From IMG/VR virus record IMGVR_UViG_3300020392_000005: a stretch of DNA of 64,000 nt. One strand, written 5' to 3'. The notes below the pieces were generated by a model that did not search any database, was not told where the DNA came from, and saw nothing but the letters and a program-made list of their open reading frames with translations. Shown here piece after piece: positions 303 to 64,000 of this stretch. A program made the translations under genes and the position numbers. Numbering within the stretch: position 1 is the first letter of the stretch; each line of letters opens with the position of its first letter. Source of the stretch: a virus.

Positions 303-950
303 TTATAGTTTTTTTAAGAAATCTTTGAATACATTTGCCTTAGCTTCTGCAATTTTCAGTCGTTTTGCTTGTGCTATATACTCTTTATACTCTTCAATCT
401 CTCTTTCTTTTATAACGCCATTGTCCCAAACCCACTCTTTATTCTCCATAATACCTTCTACGAAAGCGTCTGGAGCGCTTGGGTCTGCAACTATATCAGC
501 AGCTGTTGCCAAATAGAAGTCTTTTCCGACTACTGCTTGACCACCTCTACCTCTTTCTAATGAACCCATACCACGACTTGATACGCCTAATTTAGCGCCC
601 TCATCTATAAGATTTTTTACTATCTTACCGTATGGAGTGTCCATTATCTTCGCCTCACCAATAAAATTGTTTCCATCTTCGTGTATATCTGTTATCATAT
701 GAGATACACGCTCAAGGTTTACCGTAGGTCCGTCAGGATGTCCTAACTCGCCGAACGCTCTTTTTTGGTTGACAAATTCTCTATTATATCTACTAACTTC
801 TTTTGCTAGAGTTTCTTTAGGATAAACTCGTCCATTTCTATTTTTGATTTCTGATTGTAAGAAGACACCACGGATTTTGTAATTCTTTTTTCCGCCTACA
901 TCTTCGCATATGTACTCAACATTTTCAACTTGTTCAGTAATTAGTTTCAT
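303..950 (-). CDS. Prohead protease gp21
   Basis: MKLITE start, NRNGRVYP, GELGHP, GVSSRGMGSL and DIVADPSAPDAFV motifs. Confidence 0.96.
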   Translation of the reverse strand: MKLITEQVENVEYICEDVGGKKNYKIRGVFLQSEIKNRNGRVYPKETLAKEVSRYNREFVNQKRAFGELGHPDGPTVNLERVSHMITDIHEDGNNFIGEAKIMDTPYGKIVKNLIDEGAKLGVSSRGMGSLERGRGGQAVVGKDFYLATAADIVADPSAPDAFVEGIMENKEWVWDNGVIKEREIEEYKEYIAQAKRLKIAEAKANVFKDFLKKL

Positions 951-2340: not shown

Positions 2341-3867
2341 CTATATTATTTCGTCTGGTTCATTGCCTGACACACTAGTTTGTGGACTTGCAATAATACC
2401 ATCATCAATTTCTCTTTTGATTTCGTTATCAATGTCAGATATTTCTCTTTCAGATTGTTTCAATATGTTTTTTCTAACATAGTTGACTGAAAAATATTTA
2501 CCAACATAGTCTCTTACATCATTAGCAAGAGCAATTCTTTCTCTTAATAACTCAGCGTTTTTAAGTTCGCTGAAATGACCATCGGCAAGAAAATCATATT
2601 TGATTTTCTCTTTCATATCTATCCAATCGTCATCATTGATTATTGATTTAAGAACCAATTGAGTTCTTAATAAATCATTAAACAATTCTGTAAATTTCTT
2701 TCTTAATCTTTGTACAAACTTTGTAAATTTAAGTTCGTCTCTAGTTATCTCGGTACTTCTACCTAGATTGAAACCTTGACTACTTTCTAATCTACTAATA
2801 GGTACATTTAGAGAACGATATAGTTTTCTTTGGAAGTATTCTATATCTGCAACTTCACCTAGGTTTTGACCACCAGGTAATGTAGATATATCAGTTCCTC
2901 TACCACCTTCTCTACTAGGTAACCAAAAGTCTTCAAGCATAGACATATAGTTTCTATCGTCTCTAATCTCTCCTGTACTTGCGTCATAGACAAGTTTGTT
3001 TCTGTATCTTGCCATAACATCACGGAGATATTGCTCTGCTTTTACTTTAGGTAAGTTACCTACATCAATCTTAAATATTCTTCTTTCAGGTGCTCTTGCA
3101 ATTCTGTAAATAACAACAGCGTCTTCAATCATACGCAATTGATTTACAGGTTTGATTGCCTTATGTAAATAAGACATAACCATATTTTTGTTCAAGTCTA
3201 CTAAACCACTTGGACAAAAAGATATAGCGTCTGGTGCAATCTTAATACCACCACTTGCCATACCAGGTCCTGCAACACCTTTTTCATTGTATAAAAAGTA
3301 TTCGTTATAGTCGTGTACCACTTGTATGTTTGCCATAGCAACTGGACGACCTTTTTTAATTTCTCTTAACTTCTTAATCTTTCTAGGGTCTATGTATCGT
3401 AATTCAGTAATACCCTTAACTGGACTTTCTCTATCAATAATCTTATGATAGTATATTCTTCCGTCTACATACCATCTACGAAAGATATCGTGTCCTCTTG
3501 TAGAAAAATTAAGTAGTCTTAATATTTCTTTAAATTCATCTTCAATTTTTCGTTTAATTGCACTTGAAAGTGTTGTATCAGATAAGTCAACTCTAACTGG
3601 ATCCTTATCAATTTCATTTGCCACTATGGCTTCGTTTACGATATCCTCTATGGCCATATCGCACTCTGGATGAATTGATACCTCTCTATATCTCCTAATT
3701 AAGTCTTGCTCAGTTTTCGCCGTACCTTCCATATCAAGGTACTGACCAAAATAACCTCCAGCGGCGACGGTTTGTGTACCGTCATCCGCTTTAGGTTGAG
3801 TAAAACTTTGTTTAGGGTCTACTTTAGGTTTAGTTCTAGTTATCTGAAAACCGAAAAGCTCTGCCAT
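2341..3867 (-). CDS. Portal vertex protein gp20
   Basis: MAELFGF, RRWYVDGR, YRIARAPERRIFKIDVGNLP and EDFWLPSREGGRGT motifs. Confidence 0.98.
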   Translation of the reverse strand: MAELFGFQITRTKPKVDPKQSFTQPKADDGTQTVAAGGYFGQYLDMEGTAKTEQDLIRRYREVSIHPECDMAIEDIVNEAIVANEIDKDPVRVDLSDTTLSSAIKRKIEDEFKEILRLLNFSTRGHDIFRRWYVDGRIYYHKIIDRESPVKGITELRYIDPRKIKKLREIKKGRPVAMANIQVVHDYNEYFLYNEKGVAGPGMASGGIKIAPDAISFCPSGLVDLNKNMVMSYLHKAIKPVNQLRMIEDAVVIYRIARAPERRIFKIDVGNLPKVKAEQYLRDVMARYRNKLVYDASTGEIRDDRNYMSMLEDFWLPSREGGRGTDISTLPGGQNLGEVADIEYFQRKLYRSLNVPISRLESSQGFNLGRSTEITRDELKFTKFVQRLRKKFTELFNDLLRTQLVLKSIINDDDWIDMKEKIKYDFLADGHFSELKNAELLRERIALANDVRDYVGKYFSVNYVRKNILKQSEREISDIDNEIKREIDDGIIASPQTSVSGNEPDEII

Positions 3868-4455: not shown

Positions 4456-6390
4456 TTAACCTGCTATCTCTTCAAAAGAGACACCAGTTCTGGTTGCAAC
4501 GAAAGATAAAGTGATAAAGTTGATACTTCTTGCTGGTTTTACAAAAATCTCAGCAATAAATTCGTTTCTATCAATTACTTCGCCTGTGTTGTTTGTTTCA
4601 TCACACACTACTAAAAAGTCTGTGATACCTCGTCTACCTTGTACTTCTCTTAGGAAAGGTTCTACTAGGTTTCTAAAGTTCGCTCTTGTAAACTCGTCAT
4701 TAAATTCAAAGAGTTGGAATTTAGAAGCTGTCGCAATCGCCTTTTCTAAAACGATAAACAATCTTCTTACATTTATTCTATCAAACGCAGAAGGTTTTGC
4801 CAATCCAGTTTTGTCTCCGAAAAGAACAATACCTTGACCTGGGAATGAAACAACTGGGTTTATTCTCGCTCTGTATAGTTCGTCTCTTTGAGTTTTATTT
4901 GGATTGTAAGCAAGTTTACTAGCACCTCTAATAATACCTCTGTTTAATCCTGCAGGACTAAACCAAGCGTCATTAGTTAAATCAGTTCTAGCAGCCAAGC
5001 CAGCCATATCTCCGTTTAGCGGAACATATCTGAATACATCATTGTATCTGTCGTACATATATTTGTAACCACTATCAAATATTACATATGAAGATGATTG
5101 TATTGCATTGAAGAAAGCAAGTACATTGTTTGTTTGATTGATAGCTGATGTAATACCTACTACATCGCTTCTTTGTGGACTTGCAAATACAACAGCGTCT
5201 TTTCTTGTTTCAGCGATTGTAATTAAATCACCGATTAAAGTTGCTGAAGCGTTACCAGCCATTATCAAACTAACATCTACGGATTCACTATCTTGGAATA
5301 ATTCAAACGCAGACTTTCTAACACCGTCAGTTGCCGTACCATCATCACCACCTGCGAAAGATAATGCGATAGGAGCGGTAACATCTGTAAATGTTTTACC
5401 TGCTTTTGCGTCTCCCCAATTTGTTCCGTTAGAGTTGTGGTCTCCCCAATAAATCATACCAGATTTTCTGTATATGACTTCTGGATAGAAGTTGTTATTT
5501 CCACTTGCGTCTTTAGCGTCTTTAGCTTTTGAAACACCTTCAAAAACTTCTAACACTTCGCCTTTTGTTCCGTTTATAGTACCATCGGCGTCTACTACGA
5601 TAATGTGCATTTCGTCATTAGAACCACCAGCAGCAGATACATCTGGAGAAGTTCCTGGAGCACCAGACACTTGGTCATAGTACTTCCATCTTCTTCTTAC
5701 ATTTGCACCGTTTGTGATAACTCTACTTAATCCGCCAGTACCAACACTTTTCTTTAATGTGATATCGTTAGAAGAAACTTGCGTTACCTCGTACTCAACA
5801 CCATCATCATAGTCGTTAGTTCCTGCAGAAGTTGAAAAAGCGATAATATCGCCTACACCTATATTAGTTCCACTTGTAACCGTAATTGTAGTGTCACCCA
5901 CAGAAACAGCACTATCGTTAACGGTTGTTACCGCAACGGCTTCATATGCTGTAGCTGAAGGACAAACAGAAACTTCTAAACTATTTCCGTATGCACCAGC
6001 AAATCTTGCTACAAATTCTACGCCAGAGATACCAGTATACGCACCACTAGCTAAATAACTAGTGTTATAATCATTTGTATTTCTCACCAATAAAGCTGTA
6101 CCAGAGTTGGTAACAGCGTTCTTAATACCTGTATTTTCAGTTCGTACAACTTTTAAGGCGTTTGAGTATTGCAGAAAAGATGAAGCAGTAAAATACTCTT
6201 CAAAATTATCTGTTGTCGGTTTACCAAACAAACTTACTAGGTCTTGTTCATTAGAGATTAATGTAATCTCTCCAACTGGTCCTCTTTTAGCACTAAAAGC
6301 GTATGCGCCAATGCTAGTAGAAACAGCAGGAACTATGTTAGTAAGGTCCTTTTCTTGTACGAGAACCCCAGGTGATACTTGAAATGCCAT
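4456..6390 (-). CDS. Tail sheath protein gp18
   Basis: SPGVLVQEKDLT, WFSPAG.NRG, FDRINVRRLF and FEFNDEFTR motifs. Confidence 0.98.
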   Translation of the reverse strand: MAFQVSPGVLVQEKDLTNIVPAVSTSIGAYAFSAKRGPVGEITLISNEQDLVSLFGKPTTDNFEEYFTASSFLQYSNALKVVRTENTGIKNAVTNSGTALLVRNTNDYNTSYLASGAYTGISGVEFVARFAGAYGNSLEVSVCPSATAYEAVAVTTVNDSAVSVGDTTITVTSGTNIGVGDIIAFSTSAGTNDYDDGVEYEVTQVSSNDITLKKSVGTGGLSRVITNGANVRRRWKYYDQVSGAPGTSPDVSAAGGSNDEMHIIVVDADGTINGTKGEVLEVFEGVSKAKDAKDASGNNNFYPEVIYRKSGMIYWGDHNSNGTNWGDAKAGKTFTDVTAPIALSFAGGDDGTATDGVRKSAFELFQDSESVDVSLIMAGNASATLIGDLITIAETRKDAVVFASPQRSDVVGITSAINQTNNVLAFFNAIQSSSYVIFDSGYKYMYDRYNDVFRYVPLNGDMAGLAARTDLTNDAWFSPAGLNRGIIRGASKLAYNPNKTQRDELYRARINPVVSFPGQGIVLFGDKTGLAKPSAFDRINVRRLFIVLEKAIATASKFQLFEFNDEFTRANFRNLVEPFLREVQGRRGITDFLVVCDETNNTGEVIDRNEFIAEIFVKPARSINFITLSFVATRTGVSFEEIAG

Positions 6391-6434: not shown

Positions 6435-6525
6435 TAATGTTTCCTTTTAGTTCAAAATTCGTATTATTCATACGCCCATTGCAAATTTTCTCAATCAATA
6501 CTATTTATTATATGCCATTCCTACA

Positions 6526-21000: not shown

Positions 21001-22160
21001 TTAGAAGTTTCTGTTGGATATTCAGCACTATCAGCAGAAGATATATAAATTGTTCTTCTTGTATTTACTGAAGCACCTCCGCCAGCAGTACCTGCCCAAG
21101 CATTTGTAACCTGTAAGTATGTGTTATTACTATCGTCTGTTAGTAATGAAACAACGGTATCTTTTAATTGATTACCAGATGAATCCAACATACCTTTTAA
21201 TGATGGACTTGCGTCTGTTTCAAATCCTGGTACATCGCCTTGATTGAAAGTAATCTTTCTACTAGAACCAGCACCGCCTCTTCTTGTATCTTCAGCATTT
21301 GCAGCTGTTTCAGTTTTGTACATTGGGAAGAAGAAACCGTTATCGCCGTTTGACGCAGTTCCTTTAACATAGTAAGGACCAACTGGATCCTCTCCTAATG
21401 ACTTACCTGTGTTATTCGTATTATGAATACCATCAGCAGTATAAGAGAAACCTAGTGGGTAATACTTGTTGGAATCATTGTGTTGATGAAATCTGTATGT
21501 ATGACCTTCTTTGAAAAACTCCCAGTTCTTGTAACCAGCAAATTGTCTACCTTTCGTATTGTGTCCCATACGATTGTCAATTTTGAAATCTGGCACACCA
21601 CCTGAAACTTGTACACTAACTACAAAGTTATTGTCAGTTGGTACATAGTGGTATCTGAAATAGTTTTGTTCAAAACCATTGAAGTTGTCCAATTCAGAAT
21701 AGTCGTCTTCTGTTTGTTGGAACATTTCGTCATATTCTTCAAATAGGTGTCTTTGATGGCGAACAATTGAACCCATTGAAGCGTCTATTGTAGAGTGGTG
21801 AGCGTGTATTGCTTCGTGCTCTTGCGAGAAGTTAGTAGAGTGTCTAGTAATAGGGTTACCATCGGCGTCTGTTCTTTGCTTCTCATCACCTCTTTCATTT
21901 TCAGTCCAGTATTGTGTGTAACCGAAAAAGTCTGTATTTGTGAAATTCGGGTCGTTCATCCAACCGTTCATTTCTTTAGGATTATATCCAAATATTTTTG
22001 TTCCTGGAGCAAACGCATTTGTACCATCAGGCATATATTCATTTGTAAGAATCCACATAGCATTATTATGATAAACTATGTCGTCTCTTCTATATGACTG
22101 GTTCTTGTCGTATTCTCCTTGGAATTGTAATTTAATTCTTCCAAGATTTATTTTTGCCAT
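18036..22160 (-). CDS. Large tail/receptor-binding-like protein with cupredoxin-like module and C-terminal RCC1 repeats
   Basis: N-terminal LGRIKLQFQGEY...Y.RDDIV; EEGKTYLFDQ...HNL...YCKNHAGM; VWVWGYNGYGEVG and YGWGRNNVGQLG repeats. Confidence 0.75.
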   Translation of the reverse strand: MAKINLGRIKLQFQGEYDKNQSYRRDDIVYHNNAMWILTNEYMPDGTNAFAPGTKIFGYNPKEMNGWMNDPNFTNTDFFGYTQYWTENERGDEKQRTDADGNPITRHSTNFSQEHEAIHAHHSTIDASMGSIVRHQRHLFEEYDEMFQQTEDDYSELDNFNGFEQNYFRYHYVPTDNNFVVSVQVSGGVPDFKIDNRMGHNTKGRQFAGYKNWEFFKEGHTYRFHQHNDSNKYYPLGFSYTADGIHNTNNTGKSLGEDPVGPYYVKGTASNGDNGFFFPMYKTETAANAEDTRRGGAGSSRKITFNQGDVPGFETDASPSLKGMLDSSGNQLKDTVVSLLTDDSNNTYLQVTNAWAGTAGGGASVNTRRTIYISSADSAEYPTETSNVAPVYIQGALKVSSNISAVITQGRDNFVAAGTPAPSEHAAAGKKILLVNGKPVYQLVAESTTTSVDGITGNFTAVDKTGASSNTALGANPTSNEGLIDLYLPDTTDETANRERTFQITVANPGSGNKYYVDGVEAADNLVKFEEGKTYLFDQSHSTNATHNLAFSTTADGTHGGGSELTAGVTYVGTPGNPGAHTKINVRKATAKLYIYCKNHAGMYNSKSVETYDMANNQARTFAPTNIKKWRGYGKNGWVKYYLNNRQVDENTYVDCFFNADRDYNRNFPKKMPNGKTLGFESGYNFTNKESRTVEIEIPYAQNDYERSTNTIIYPFCLEPTTSNRATTGMYNSLGWTIEKTWRGHKHWDKVQSSMRFRGEYSPNTHYNYNDIVSYKEFKRISTGEKHYFMGTGLYRCLRDNKGRPPQYGFQEPTRSPMMTKSTVTSGRLTGRSEHEQNNETGKNYPAHIQSYHNCWESFAGMNSQEQGAGVWFPNRGPMNWPYKHGNSEFGCVYRNNCYIDKNGSIWTLGHGSDSSNGEQGRSSSYFREMTFRWRDFYNSENRNEGGYEERRSGKWTRYDRQRTPRCIQIEEGYSFKLILFDNGQVFHTGYGSHGQQGTGYDGSPGMAISPAGLEDVFAVKLAQKHGNEDSTHTPAILDDNGDVWVWGYNGYGEVGDGRTQNVYGPKRIPREWFNDEKIVDITCSGGDSTSFYVRTSEDNIYGWGRNNVGQLGDTTTTDKYRPVKMSGFAAADNGGIAVWQCNSHSSNSNFSILDGNGYIWATGYNGYGNFVDNSTTNRNQLTQSTATPNEDIVDFWTLYWNGYHTTFMRLKNGQTWTAGYSGSYYLSGDGGTGTNQAPVQVDKINNLKEVSIVCSSGDVGRLYMLQDNGEFFSQGYSGYGGLANPIAGTNWTGEDGTYKPFHTYIPAGTRIRTMYAKGTDNSSNYYSPQMMVGTDDGQVLLWGYSNNNNLGHHATATYSSTGRSMMWNAGIGR

Positions 22161-22194
22161 TTTAGTTCCCTATCTTTGTTTAACTATTTATTAA

Positions 22195-54398: not shown

Positions 54399-54406
54399 TA
54401 TTTATA
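54399..54406 (-). promoter_or_regulatory. T4-type late promoter TATAAATA
   Basis: Exact motif in the intergenic gap. Confidence 0.72.
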
Positions 54407-59267: not shown

Positions 59268-59275
59268 TATTTATA
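59268..59275 (-). promoter_or_regulatory. T4-type late promoter TATAAATA
   Basis: Exact motif just upstream of gp25. Confidence 0.75.
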
Positions 59276-61996: not shown

Positions 61997-62011
61997 AACT
62001 ATTATCTTATA

Positions 62012-62326
62012 CTATTCTATCTCACTTGTCAATATGCCGTATTCTTTTAAAGTCTGAATAAGGAACTTCTTCTCTTCTGTAAGTATCCTATTTTGAGTTT
62101 CTAATATACTAATCTTCTTATCTAAATCACTAGGTCCTCTTTCATCATCAAGTACCATCTGTAATTGTTTCTTCAGTATATCCATCTGAAACTTAAAATC
62201 TTTCTCTAAAGGAACAGGACAACCAGGTGCCATACGCAAATCTATGACATCTTTATTGTACAATTCTTCTTCTTGTCTTTTTCTATCGTAATTCATTATA
62301 CTCCAAAACTTTCTCCACAACCACAA
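62012..62326 (-). CDS. Hypothetical coiled-coil protein
   Basis: ORF downstream of IscA; true start probably MNYDRK. Confidence 0.5.
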   Translation of the reverse strand: MWLWRKFWSIMNYDRKRQEEELYNKDVIDLRMAPGCPVPLEKDFKFQMDILKKQLQMVLDDERGPSDLDKKISILETQNRILTEEKKFLIQTLKEYGILTSEIE

Positions 62327-62619
62327 CTACTTGTTGCGTTAGGATTCTTTAATTCAAGGAAACTACCAAATATCTCTTTCTTATATTCTATCGTCATACC
62401 TGATAGCATTAATAAACTATTCTTATCCACTAATAGACTGAAAGTATCGTAATCTAACTTCTCATCTTCCTCGCCTTGTTTATCATCAAAAGACCAGTCG
62501 TATTTAAAACCTGCACAACCACCACCTTTAACCTCTAGTCTTACAAACTTCTTATTATGTTCCTTTGCAAGATTGATTAAATGTTCCTTCGCTGTATCTG
62601 TAAGATTAATTAAACTCAT
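62296..62619 (-). CDS. iscA: A-type Fe-S cluster carrier (IscA/HesB family)
   Basis: I.LTD.A, RL.VKGGGCAGF.Y, NPNATSSCGCGESF. Confidence 0.95.
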   Translation of the reverse strand: MSLINLTDTAKEHLINLAKEHNKKFVRLEVKGGGCAGFKYDWSFDDKQGEEDEKLDYDTFSLLVDKNSLLMLSGMTIEYKKEIFGSFLELKNPNATSSCGCGESFGV

Positions 62620-62789
62620 ATATCTTTTGTCTCCATACGACCCATTAAAATGTCTATTAATAATTTCTCAAAGTCCTGAAACATATCCCACATATGACTT
62701 TGTTCGTTCATCTGAAAGAATATGGCGATACACAATGCTATTATCGCAAGTGTATTGACCAGGCATAGAATTAGAATTAATTTATTCAT
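62616..62789 (-). CDS. Small membrane protein
   Basis: MNKLILILCLVNTLAIIALCIAIFF; start moved to the ATG after the hairpin. Confidence 0.5.
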   Translation of the reverse strand: MNKLILILCLVNTLAIIALCIAIFFQMNEQSHMWDMFQDFEKLLIDILMGRMETKDI

Positions 62790-62800
62790 ATGATTATTTA

Positions 62801-62818
62801 GGGGAGATTTAACTCCCC
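62801..62818 (-). terminator. GC-rich hairpin GGGGAG-6nt-CTCCCC, possible terminator or processing stem
   Basis: 6-bp perfect stem just after the stop of 62825..63019; no clear U-tract. Confidence 0.4.
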
Positions 62819-62824
62819 CAAATA

Positions 62825-63019
62825 TTACCAATTATCGGTTGACTTGACAACTCTATGACCTAGTACCAATCCTTTATTCTCACCTTCTTTTAAGGTATAA
62901 CCAGATGTACCATTGCCATTTATATCCACTTCTGTACGAGAGGAAGCGAGAGCCTTTTCTTTTCGCTCAATCATCTTCTTCTTTCTATAAGTGGAGAGTA
63001 AATAAGTATGTCTATTCAT
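62825..63019 (-). CDS. 64-aa basic protein downstream of the glutamine riboswitch
   Basis: AGGAGG RBS; MNRHTYLLSTYRKKKMIERKEKALASSRTEVD... Confidence 0.7.
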   Translation of the reverse strand: MNRHTYLLSTYRKKKMIERKEKALASSRTEVDINGNGTSGYTLKEGENKGLVLGHRVVKSTDNW

Positions 63020-63043
63020 AACACCCTCCTATGTTTCAAGTTA

Positions 63044-63096
63044 GGTGCGTTCCTTCAGGCGAGTGCCCTACTTCCGACCATAAATGGTTGAACGAA
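63044..63096 (-). ncRNA. Glutamine riboswitch (glnA RNA motif)
   Basis: CGUUC-A-ACCAU UU AUGGU-C-GGAAGUA-G-GGC ACUC GCC-U-GAAG-GAACGC: P1 CGUUC/GAACG, P2 and P3 hairpins, and the conserved GGAAGUA...GAA E-loop. Confidence 0.85.
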
Positions 63097-63352
63097 TAAA
63101 ACTATTTATAACTTTACGGTTGAATAAGATAAGAACTATTATGGAGAAAGGTATAGCGTACAGGAACTCGTCTATTATATTGTTGCCTATAATTCGTTGT
63201 TGTTCAGAATACTCGGTGATGGTACCGATAATCGCAACATACATAAACGCAAAGAGATAAGATAACCCTACGAGTTTCGCCCCGATTTTTATTAGAGAAT
63301 AAACTCCGAGAAAAAGACGCCCTATACCCCGCCGAAGCCAGTCCAATTCCAT
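63068..63352 (-). CDS. Hypothetical membrane protein
   Basis: 94 aa with two hydrophobic segments; its 3' end overlaps the late promoter and aptamer. Confidence 0.45.
   Translation of the reverse strand: MELDWLRRGIGRLFLGVYSLIKIGAKLVGLSYLFAFMYVAIIGTITEYSEQQRIIGNNIIDEFLYAIPFSIIVLILFNRKVINSFIRSTIYGRK
63103..63110 (-). promoter_or_regulatory. T4-type late promoter TATAAATA directly upstream of the riboswitch
   Basis: Exact motif ending 8 nt before the CGUUC of P1. Confidence 0.7.
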
Positions 63353-63450
63353 TTATCCTTAAATCGTTCCTCCTCATCCTTATATGGTGGCGCAAACACA
63401 CACCTTATAATGAAGACGACCGAGAATCCTAATATGAAGAAAGTTATCAT
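63322..63450 (-). CDS. 42-aa membrane peptide (not in ORF track)
   Basis: MITFFILGFSVVFIIRCVFAPPYKDEEERFKDKWNWTGFGGV. Confidence 0.4.
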   Translation of the reverse strand: MITFFILGFSVVFIIRCVFAPPYKDEEERFKDKWNWTGFGGV

Positions 63451-63543
63451 TGTTTGTTGCGTCCGTCTCTATGCTGTACTCTATGGTATCTCTGGAGGAC
63501 TCTACACATCTATGTATAAGAAATGAGAACTCCAGAGGTACGA

Positions 63544-63606
63544 TTAATTGATAACACTTGTAATTAATTGTAATGCAAGTGCTAATATTGTAAGTGCTGT
63601 CAACAT
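63544..63606 (-). CDS. 20-aa hydrophobic peptide coupled to pqqA
   Basis: TAATG overlap; MLTALTILALALQLITSVIN. Confidence 0.35.
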   Translation of the reverse strand: MLTALTILALALQLITSVIN

Positions 63607-63683
63607 TATCTTAACGCCGTTGAGTATGAGTTAATCTCTAAACCAACACACACAATATCAATAACAGGTACTGACCATTGCAT
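63606..63683 (-). CDS. pqqA: Pyrroloquinoline quinone precursor peptide PqqA (not in ORF track)
   Basis: AGGAG RBS; MQWSVPVIDIVCVGLEINSYSTALR has M-x-W-x-x-P, CVGxE and the invariant E-x-x-x-Y core of alphaproteobacterial-type PqqA. Confidence 0.85.
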   Translation of the reverse strand: MQWSVPVIDIVCVGLEINSYSTALR

Positions 63684-63749
63684 AATGAACTCCTATGTAA
63701 AGGTTAATATTACTTGTTATACTATTATTTATTAATACAGAAAAATCGC

Positions 63750-63778
63750 TTGACAAGGTAGCGACTATGTGTTAGTAT
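63750..63778 (+). promoter_or_regulatory. Sigma70-type (early) promoter TTGACA-17-TAGTAT
   Basis: Exact -35, 17-nt spacer, -10-like hexamer, A-rich upstream tract. Confidence 0.7.
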
Positions 63779-63815
63779 GAAGTATGATAAAAATTAAACA
63801 AGAAAGGACTATACT

Positions 63816-63935
63816 ATGAGTTGTGAACATACACAAAGATTCCTAGAGGATAAGTATGAAGAAGGCTTAGAGCAAGGTATGTCAGAAGCTGAGGCTGAGG
63901 CATATGCTCATAAGTGTTTAGAAGAGTGCCCTTAA
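63816..63935 (+). CDS. 39-aa acidic peptide (not in ORF track)
   Basis: GAAAGGACTA RBS; MSCEHTQRFLEDKYEEGLEQGMSEAEAEAYAHKCLEECP. Confidence 0.6.
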   Translation: MSCEHTQRFLEDKYEEGLEQGMSEAEAEAYAHKCLEECP

Positions 63936-64000
63936 TAGGAACATAAAAAATATCCCAAAAAATTTTCGTGCCCTAAAAGTTATGGCTTGCGCCAGTCTCC

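Follow-up and report, generated by a model that had tools for sequence, protein, structure and literature searches.

PQQ is made from the peptide PqqA, which is bound by PqqD, cross-linked from its Glu to its Tyr by PqqE and converted to the finished cofactor with the help of PqqB and PqqC, at the cost of one peptide per PQQ. A viral PqqA was first reported in 2020, in Lake Baikal methylotroph phages of the population VP_266 (Coutinho et al. 2020, bioRxiv 10.1101/2020.04.02.019802, PMC7678222), as a proposed auxiliary metabolic gene for the PQQ-dependent oxidation of methanol by the host. The locus described here, which lies in a DNA stretch of 64,000 nucleotides (IMG/VR record IMGVR_UViG_3300020392_000005; hereafter the window), resembles that of VP_266 in being a PqqA gene on a viral contig. 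The two differ in that the Lake Baikal phages are freshwater viruses assigned to Methylophilaceae hosts, and representatives of VP_139 and VP_266 also carry a methanol dehydrogenase, whereas the window belongs to a marine T4-like myophage, encodes an alphaproteobacterial-type peptide and was seen to contain neither a dehydrogenase nor another pqq gene. The novelty of a viral PqqA, which was implied by an earlier note made from this sequence, has thus to be given up: the principle was published in 2020, and the value of the present locus lies in annotation, host linkage and ecology, not in a new mechanism.

Another system is the Methylophilales (OM43) phage Melnitz EXVC044M, of the same T4-like marine lineage, where we found an unannotated 24-codon pqqA (MZ577097.1, positions 76134-76208, plus strand, corresponding to 3135-3209, plus strand, of our locus L004) with its own AAGGAGG motif and a score of 31.6-34 bits. 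The GenBank record places over it a hypothetical protein on the wrong strand (MelnitzEXVC044M_152), and pqqA is mentioned neither in the Melnitz paper (PMC9004378) nor in the pelagimyophage paper. As in the window, the Melnitz gene stands alone, led by a Shine-Dalgarno motif and ahead of baseplate genes, without pqqB-E in the complete genome. The two peptides differ in their core, which reads F-G-F-E-V-T-M-Y in Melnitz and V-G-L-E-I-N-S-Y in the window, so that they are not orthologs by descent of the same allele. Our literature search returned no marine report of a viral pqqA. A further parallel is offered by the psbA gene of T4-like cyanophages, in which the phage carries the fastest-consumed component, the stable machinery being that of the host. 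Phage pqqA may obey the same logic, with the difference that psbA encodes a protein subunit and pqqA a peptide that is sacrificed as the substrate in making a cofactor.

The minus strand of the window carries nearly all of its long ORFs, among them those for the portal, tail sheath, large terminase and baseplate wedge of T4 type. The portal shares 78% identity with its counterpart in Pelagibacter phage Mosig and 63% with the one in Melnitz. Judged from these genes, the window (G+C about 35%) is a marine T4-like myophage, as the earlier note had it. Mosig, the closest cultured relative, is a phage of a SAR11 strain and is devoid of pqqA; a blastn search of positions 62000-64000 against GenBank phages gave no match. 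The DNA of the window also occurs, at 99% identity, in two short metagenome contigs, and in 17 marine DNA runs, which belong to several studies, over half of the words sampled from it were found, indicating that the phage is widespread.

The pqqA gene heads a minus-strand block that continues downstream with small ORFs, a glutamine riboswitch, an IscA-like gene, a 2OG-Fe(II) oxygenase, a DUF2061 gene and a gp25-type baseplate gene. The riboswitch (RF01739, positions 63044-63096, minus strand; 55.1 bits for a gathering score of 35) is just upstream of a 64-aa ORF (62825-63019), and such riboswitches are described as common in Melnitz-like marine phages (PMC9004378). The IscA/ErpA-type Fe-S cluster protein (62296-62619, minus strand; PF01521, 74.5 bits) is encoded about 1 kb downstream of pqqA. 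As a side observation, PqqE is a multi-cluster Fe-S enzyme, and a functional link between it and the nearby IscA-like gene is conceivable. A tRNA search found none.

The pqqA gene itself, a member of the list of ORFs, occupies positions 63606-63683 on the minus strand and comprises 25 codons. Its AGGAG Shine-Dalgarno motif (63690-63694, minus strand) was read 6 nt before the ATG (63683-63681). These elements, the translation and the promoter-like AATAAATA discussed below are all present exactly as given in the earlier note. The peptide of 25 residues has Trp3, Pro6, Gly14, Glu16 and Tyr20; it thus keeps both the W-x-x-P motif and the Glu-x3-Tyr pair, and its V-G-L-E-I-N-x-Y core is whole, the cross-linked Glu and Tyr included. 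A loose PqqA pattern (M, W-x-x-P, G-x-E-x3-Y and a stop within 15 residues) matched once in the window and not at all in 100 Markov-1 random sequences of 64 kb, which excludes chance. No Rfam family was found over pqqA, and no intrinsic terminator at the locus.

The comparison with family models, which had been suggested as a check, gave a divided answer. With the NCBIfam equivalog model of PqqA (TIGR02107), the peptide passed the cut-off of 20 with 21.3 bits (E 1.9e-4), its residues 3-21 being aligned with positions 1-19 of the 21 of the model, whereas with Pfam PF08042 it remained, with 13.2 bits, below the gathering score of 21.1, and residues 11-20 only were aligned. On these two models the family match of the peptide appears borderline but positive, and we file the ORF as PqqA because of the NCBIfam result and of its orthology to higher-scoring phage copies. 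Among nine peptides scored with TIGR02107, that of the window was the lowest, the scores of its relatives being 29.9-41.5 bits. A tblastn search of GenBank phages with the 25-residue peptide found none, a query that short reaching significance only with a nearly identical subject. We conclude that the window ORF is a genuine, 25-codon, stand-alone copy of pqqA.

With regard to transcription, a T4-type late-promoter-like AATAAATA of putative function (63726-63733, minus strand) is located 42 nt upstream of the pqqA ATG. All 16 WATAAATA motifs of the window are on the minus (gene) strand, and most of them stand 8-49 nt ahead of gene starts, for example those of structural genes (59268-59275, 54399-54406 and 22185-22192 are among these sites). 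Two other AATAAATA variants belong to the 16, one of them 24 nt before the gene start at 22160; the third variant (6502-6509) is 111 nt ahead of the start of the sheath gene. Though their number is not above chance (16 observed versus 22 expected), the strand and spacing of these motifs look like a clean T4-type late-promoter pattern, which makes the late-promoter idea of the earlier note a reasonable one. The support is particular to the T4-like motif pattern of the window. Upstream of viral pqqA genes generally, the motif was found in 5 of 121 cases among the matches listed, and is thus not conserved across viral copies. A similar AATAAATA-GT-TGTAT element occurs at the same site in two related loci that both lack pqqA (L006 and L007). 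On the opposite strand, the best hit of a consensus scan (10/12) is a sigma-70-like promoter (63750-63778, plus strand; TTGACA, 17 nt, TAGTAT, with a TG) facing a divergent 39-aa ORF; it is a candidate by consensus match only. In two metatranscriptome runs of one study, two error-free contigs cover positions 63472-63676; these contigs are unstranded and may stem from DNA carry-over, and they give a weak hint that pqqA is transcribed.

We gathered relatives of the locus from IMG/VR in two ways, with the IscA-like neighbour as an anchor and with degenerate DNA patterns. A PqqA-like ORF was present in the flank of 16 of the 41 IscA-anchored loci, and the pattern scans yielded 9 contigs, then at least 120 contigs. 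The viral set comprises at least 149 pqqA ORFs, with about 95 peptide variants among the matches listed and a G+C of 0.29-0.53, nearly all values being 0.30-0.42. The same layout, a Trp-x-x-Pro leader in a peptide of about 22-30 residues, was seen again in bacteria (about 120 ORFs) and in viruses (about 150 ORFs) among the matches listed, and an SD-like motif occurs at -16 to -4 of 119 of the 121 distinct viral pqqA ORFs (matches listed). The syntenic ortholog of the window locus is L014, which shares about 67% nucleotide identity across the region and has the same succession of a divergent ORF of about 40 aa, pqqA, a 20-codon mini-ORF, a membrane ORF and the IscA-like gene. Its pqqA (5470-5547, plus strand) scores 29.9 bits, and other viral copies 33-41.5 bits.

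The viral pqqA family is under purifying selection: 112 distinct viral cores, among the matches listed, gave a pS of 0.67, a pN of 0.17, a pN/pS of 0.25 and a median dN/dS of 0.14. It is worth noting that, as W, P, V-G, E-I-N and Y were set in our search patterns, invariance at these positions (Glu and Tyr in 112/112) holds by construction; columns free of the pattern are also conserved among the matches listed, namely Glu at W+7 (108/112; numbered from the Trp), Cys at W+19 (109/112) and Ala at W+20 (109/112). The W, P, G, E and Y residues by which the peptide had been assigned to the PqqA family are kept in its phage homologs. One further viral-type pqqA lies on a 13.8-kb contig of G+C 0.36, labelled as a Maricaulis sp. 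MAG (L116, NZMJ01000006.1). Maricaulis is a high-GC genus, in which such a composition seems foreign, and the contig may be a mis-binned phage fragment.

Using tblastn with host operon proteins, we found no pqqB, C, D or E in the 64-kb window and, at E <= 1e-3, no PqqB-E in 172 viral loci, save one generic radical-SAM match of 22% identity. These 172 loci without PqqB-E rule out that the IMG/VR pqqA matches are pieces of host pqq operons. The NCBIfam models of PqqB, C, D and E gave no match in Melnitz, whose genome is complete, nor in four IMG/VR contigs that carry pqqA and of which one is rated 99% complete, and no dehydrogenase was seen in the phage DNA examined. The precursor without its enzymes, which the earlier note had observed in the window, was thus met again in all these phages, and the reading of pqqA as a precursor-only auxiliary gene is supported.

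Where, then, is the rest of the pathway? A pqqA pattern scan of bacteria (one genome per species), in which alphaproteobacterial PqqAs proved to read as previously described, with their Trp-x-x-Pro leader, Glu and Tyr, matched mostly high-GC soil alphaproteobacteria, plus low-GC (0.27-0.32) marine genomes of 1.3-2.0 Mb. The latter are the single-cell genomes (SAGs) AG-404-M02, AG-337-E20 and AG-915-O07, and MAGs, MED657 among the set, labelled Rickettsiales, Pelagibacterales or Alphaproteobacteria. When such candidate hosts were inspected for pqqBCDE, PqqC and PqqE were above the cut-off in all five marine genomes examined. Direct reading showed the genes in the order pqqA-B-C-D-E in four genomes (G001, G002, G004 and G005), and in the fifth, with PqqC and PqqE also over the cut-off, pqqA lies just outside the ORF list. 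An XoxF-type PQQ dehydrogenase (about 666 bits) is encoded 2-3 kb from the pqq operon in four of the five, and PqqC is above the cut-off in 20 of 41 relatives of one marine genome.

The PqqA of the marine operon is identical, over its last 16 residues, to the L009-type viral peptides, the commonest viral type among the matches listed. The bacterial peptides of AG-404-M02, AG-337-E20, AG-915-O07 and MED657 resemble that of the window in their V-G-L-E-I-N-S-Y core, their size and the existence of orphan copies off pqqBCDE; the bacteria differ from the phage in also having pqqB-E and the XoxF-type dehydrogenase. An orphan second pqqA was found away from the operon in the two marine genomes checked; the orphan copies in L117 and L146 are far from it. 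The pqqA of the window is not linked to pqqBCDE, and these bacterial orphans mean that linkage to the operon is usual, not required. As a separate observation, marine alphaproteobacteria can have multiple pqqA copies, two inverted ones in L130 (312-383, plus strand, and 453-524, minus strand) and three in tandem in L171. From the peptide and genome comparisons, low-GC small-genome marine alphaproteobacteria are likely the host type, with the reservation that the window peptide shares 13 of its 25 residues with the four bacteria above, and just 13-14 with its best bacterial match, while for many other viral copies the agreement is almost full. It has been reported that the most highly expressed xoxF5 of the surface ocean are in MAGs "previously classified as Rickettsiales" and named Clade X (2025, PMC11996626). 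A literature search on AEGEAN-169 together with PQQ returned nothing.

From these data, we consider it likely that the locus is best explained as a genuine stand-alone phage pqqA that supplies the precursor for the PQQ of the host. During infection, the phage transcript would provide PqqA; the host PqqD would bind its N-terminal W-x-x-P part and hand it to the radical-SAM enzyme PqqE, which would cross-link Glu16 to Tyr20, and host peptidases, PqqB and PqqC would then complete PQQ. The precursor would be the component in need of continuous remaking, one peptide being destroyed per PQQ, and a phage copy would thereby sustain the supply of the cofactor. In turn, the oxidation of alcohol or methanol in the periplasm, and the energy gained from it, could be kept up along with the PQQ supply after host expression declines. 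As for the features of an auxiliary metabolic gene, the near-identical host peptides of many viral copies point to a host origin, a dN/dS of about 0.14 to selection, and pqqABCDE to partners in the host. A boost of host PQQ by the phage substrate, as had been proposed, would fit with them. Points against the substrate reading include the lack of pqqA in Mosig, the absence of the cassette described below from L006 and L007, and the timing, a late promoter being an odd choice for a slow cofactor pathway.

More tentatively, we put forward as one possibility that a precursor-only pqqA is an accessory acquired repeatedly and independently by the phages of the main ocean PQQ/XoxF methanol oxidisers, that is a small-genome alphaproteobacterial lineage, which may be Clade X (PMC11996626), and OM43, and that within one T4-like lineage, which also includes the phage of a SAR11 strain, each phage carries the PqqA type of its present host.

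That pqqA is dispensable to the phage can be seen from its surroundings, since it lies in an optional cassette of about 420 bp (63521-63940) with which the related L006 and L007 dispense. Besides pqqA and a mini-ORF, the cassette comprises the divergent 39-aa ORF and the two promoter-like sites. It is missing in L006 and L007, where the flanks are about 58 nt apart, and L005 has an unrelated 122-aa ORF at this site, while L014 has the same three ORFs as the window. The nearest relatives by IscA (L005-L008) had been expected to carry pqqA; L006 and L007 turned out to be without the cassette and L005 to have other DNA there. At the lower edge of the cassette, before the next gene (a 42-aa ORF starting at 63450), a block of about 46 nt (63475-63520, minus strand) is near-invariant in the window, L014, L005, L006 and L007, phages that are otherwise diverged, and may act in all of them as a leader or promoter element at the edge of the insertion site. 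More broadly, pqqA is patchy, one of the five related long contigs (IscA-anchored and pattern scans together) having one.

This optional cassette, the patchy occurrence in one of five related contigs and the lowest score of the window copy among those scored would also be expected if pqqA were a passenger that a mobile cassette had brought in from a host, or from another phage, and that is now neutral or decaying in this lineage, with no part in infection. We regard such drift as unlikely on the following lines of evidence. First, the identical pqqA ORF is present in the metagenome contigs L186 and L187 (99.2-99.3% overall identity), and is therefore intact, SD motif and stop included, in three independent assemblies. 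Second, both ORF and motif persist in L014, where nucleotide identity across the region is only about 67%. Third, the low dN/dS is a family-wide property.

The peculiarities of the window peptide bear on another explanation, in which it would be a decoy or inhibitor that binds PqqD or PqqE, is poorly processed, and throttles host PQQ or redirects the radical-SAM machinery. The peptide is off consensus at conserved positions, with Ile in place of the usual Glu at W+7 (four positions before Gly), and with an unusual C-terminus (Ser, Thr and Leu at W+18, +19 and +21); this Ile and the odd tail, to which the lowest model score among the nine peptides can be added, could make it a poor substrate. 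Against this, the V-G-L-E-I-N-x-Y core and the Glu and Tyr to be cross-linked are intact, and most viral copies are near-identical to host peptides, which fits a substrate better than an inhibitor. A non-Glu residue at W+7 is also encountered elsewhere, as Met or Val in bacterial PqqAs (L172 and L136) and as Met, Val or Ile among members that include two other viral types; such rare bacterial and viral members without an acidic residue mean that the Ile excludes neither membership nor function. As, in addition, a lytic phage would have no apparent benefit from lowering the energy of its host, we hold a decoy to be improbable.

The two companions of pqqA in the cassette are small ORFs, both from the ORF list. 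The 20-codon hydrophobic mini-ORF (63544-63606, minus strand) has an ATG that overlaps the pqqA stop (TAATG), and from this arrangement it is likely to be translationally coupled to pqqA. It is conserved in L014 (5552-5614, plus strand) and L290, and looks coding because its codon changes relative to the window are 7 synonymous and 4 conservative. The divergent 39-aa acidic ORF (63816-63935, plus strand), which stands beside pqqA in this sub-lineage, has homologs only in L014, L290, L186 and L187, each time beside pqqA. No known family was found for either (the 39-aa ORF being compared with Pfam). The idea that pqqA and the mini-ORF, perhaps with the 39-aa ORF, form a unit with an end product other than PQQ, such as a membrane-active or regulatory peptide pair, could appeal to these coding-like substitutions, to the stop-start overlap and to the co-occurrence of the three ORFs only in the window, L014, L290, L186 and L187, but it is very improbable, since about 140 other viral pqqA ORFs (matches listed) are without these partners, which pqqA consequently does not need, and no known family is linked to the mini-ORFs.

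Coming back to the phage pqqA as a supplier of precursor, the window is a divergent, marine, alphaproteobacterial-type example of a class of helper genes routinely overlooked by gene callers and in GenBank records. Particular to it are the lowest score of the nine peptides, with Ile for the usual Glu, the optional cassette and the two other conserved mini-ORFs. The spread of such genes in ocean viral contigs, together with their match to bacteria having pqqABCDE and XoxF, suggests that, in abundant bacterioplankton with small genomes, the PQQ-dependent oxidation of alcohol or methanol is commonly propped up by phages, and the PqqA type may help to assign hosts to uncultured T4-like marine phages. 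If each phage does carry the type of its own host, its type could be used to tell the hosts of uncultured pelagimyophage-like viruses; a further implication would be that the supply of the peptide, not of the enzymes, limits PQQ in infection, which would tie viruses to marine methanol and lanthanide-dependent carbon turnover. Finally, pqqA and an IscA-like gene were also observed together in a much smaller phage (L027/G048, IMGVR_UViG_3300046466_000088; 57 kb, rated 99% complete), and their pairing is thus not confined to T4-like myophages.
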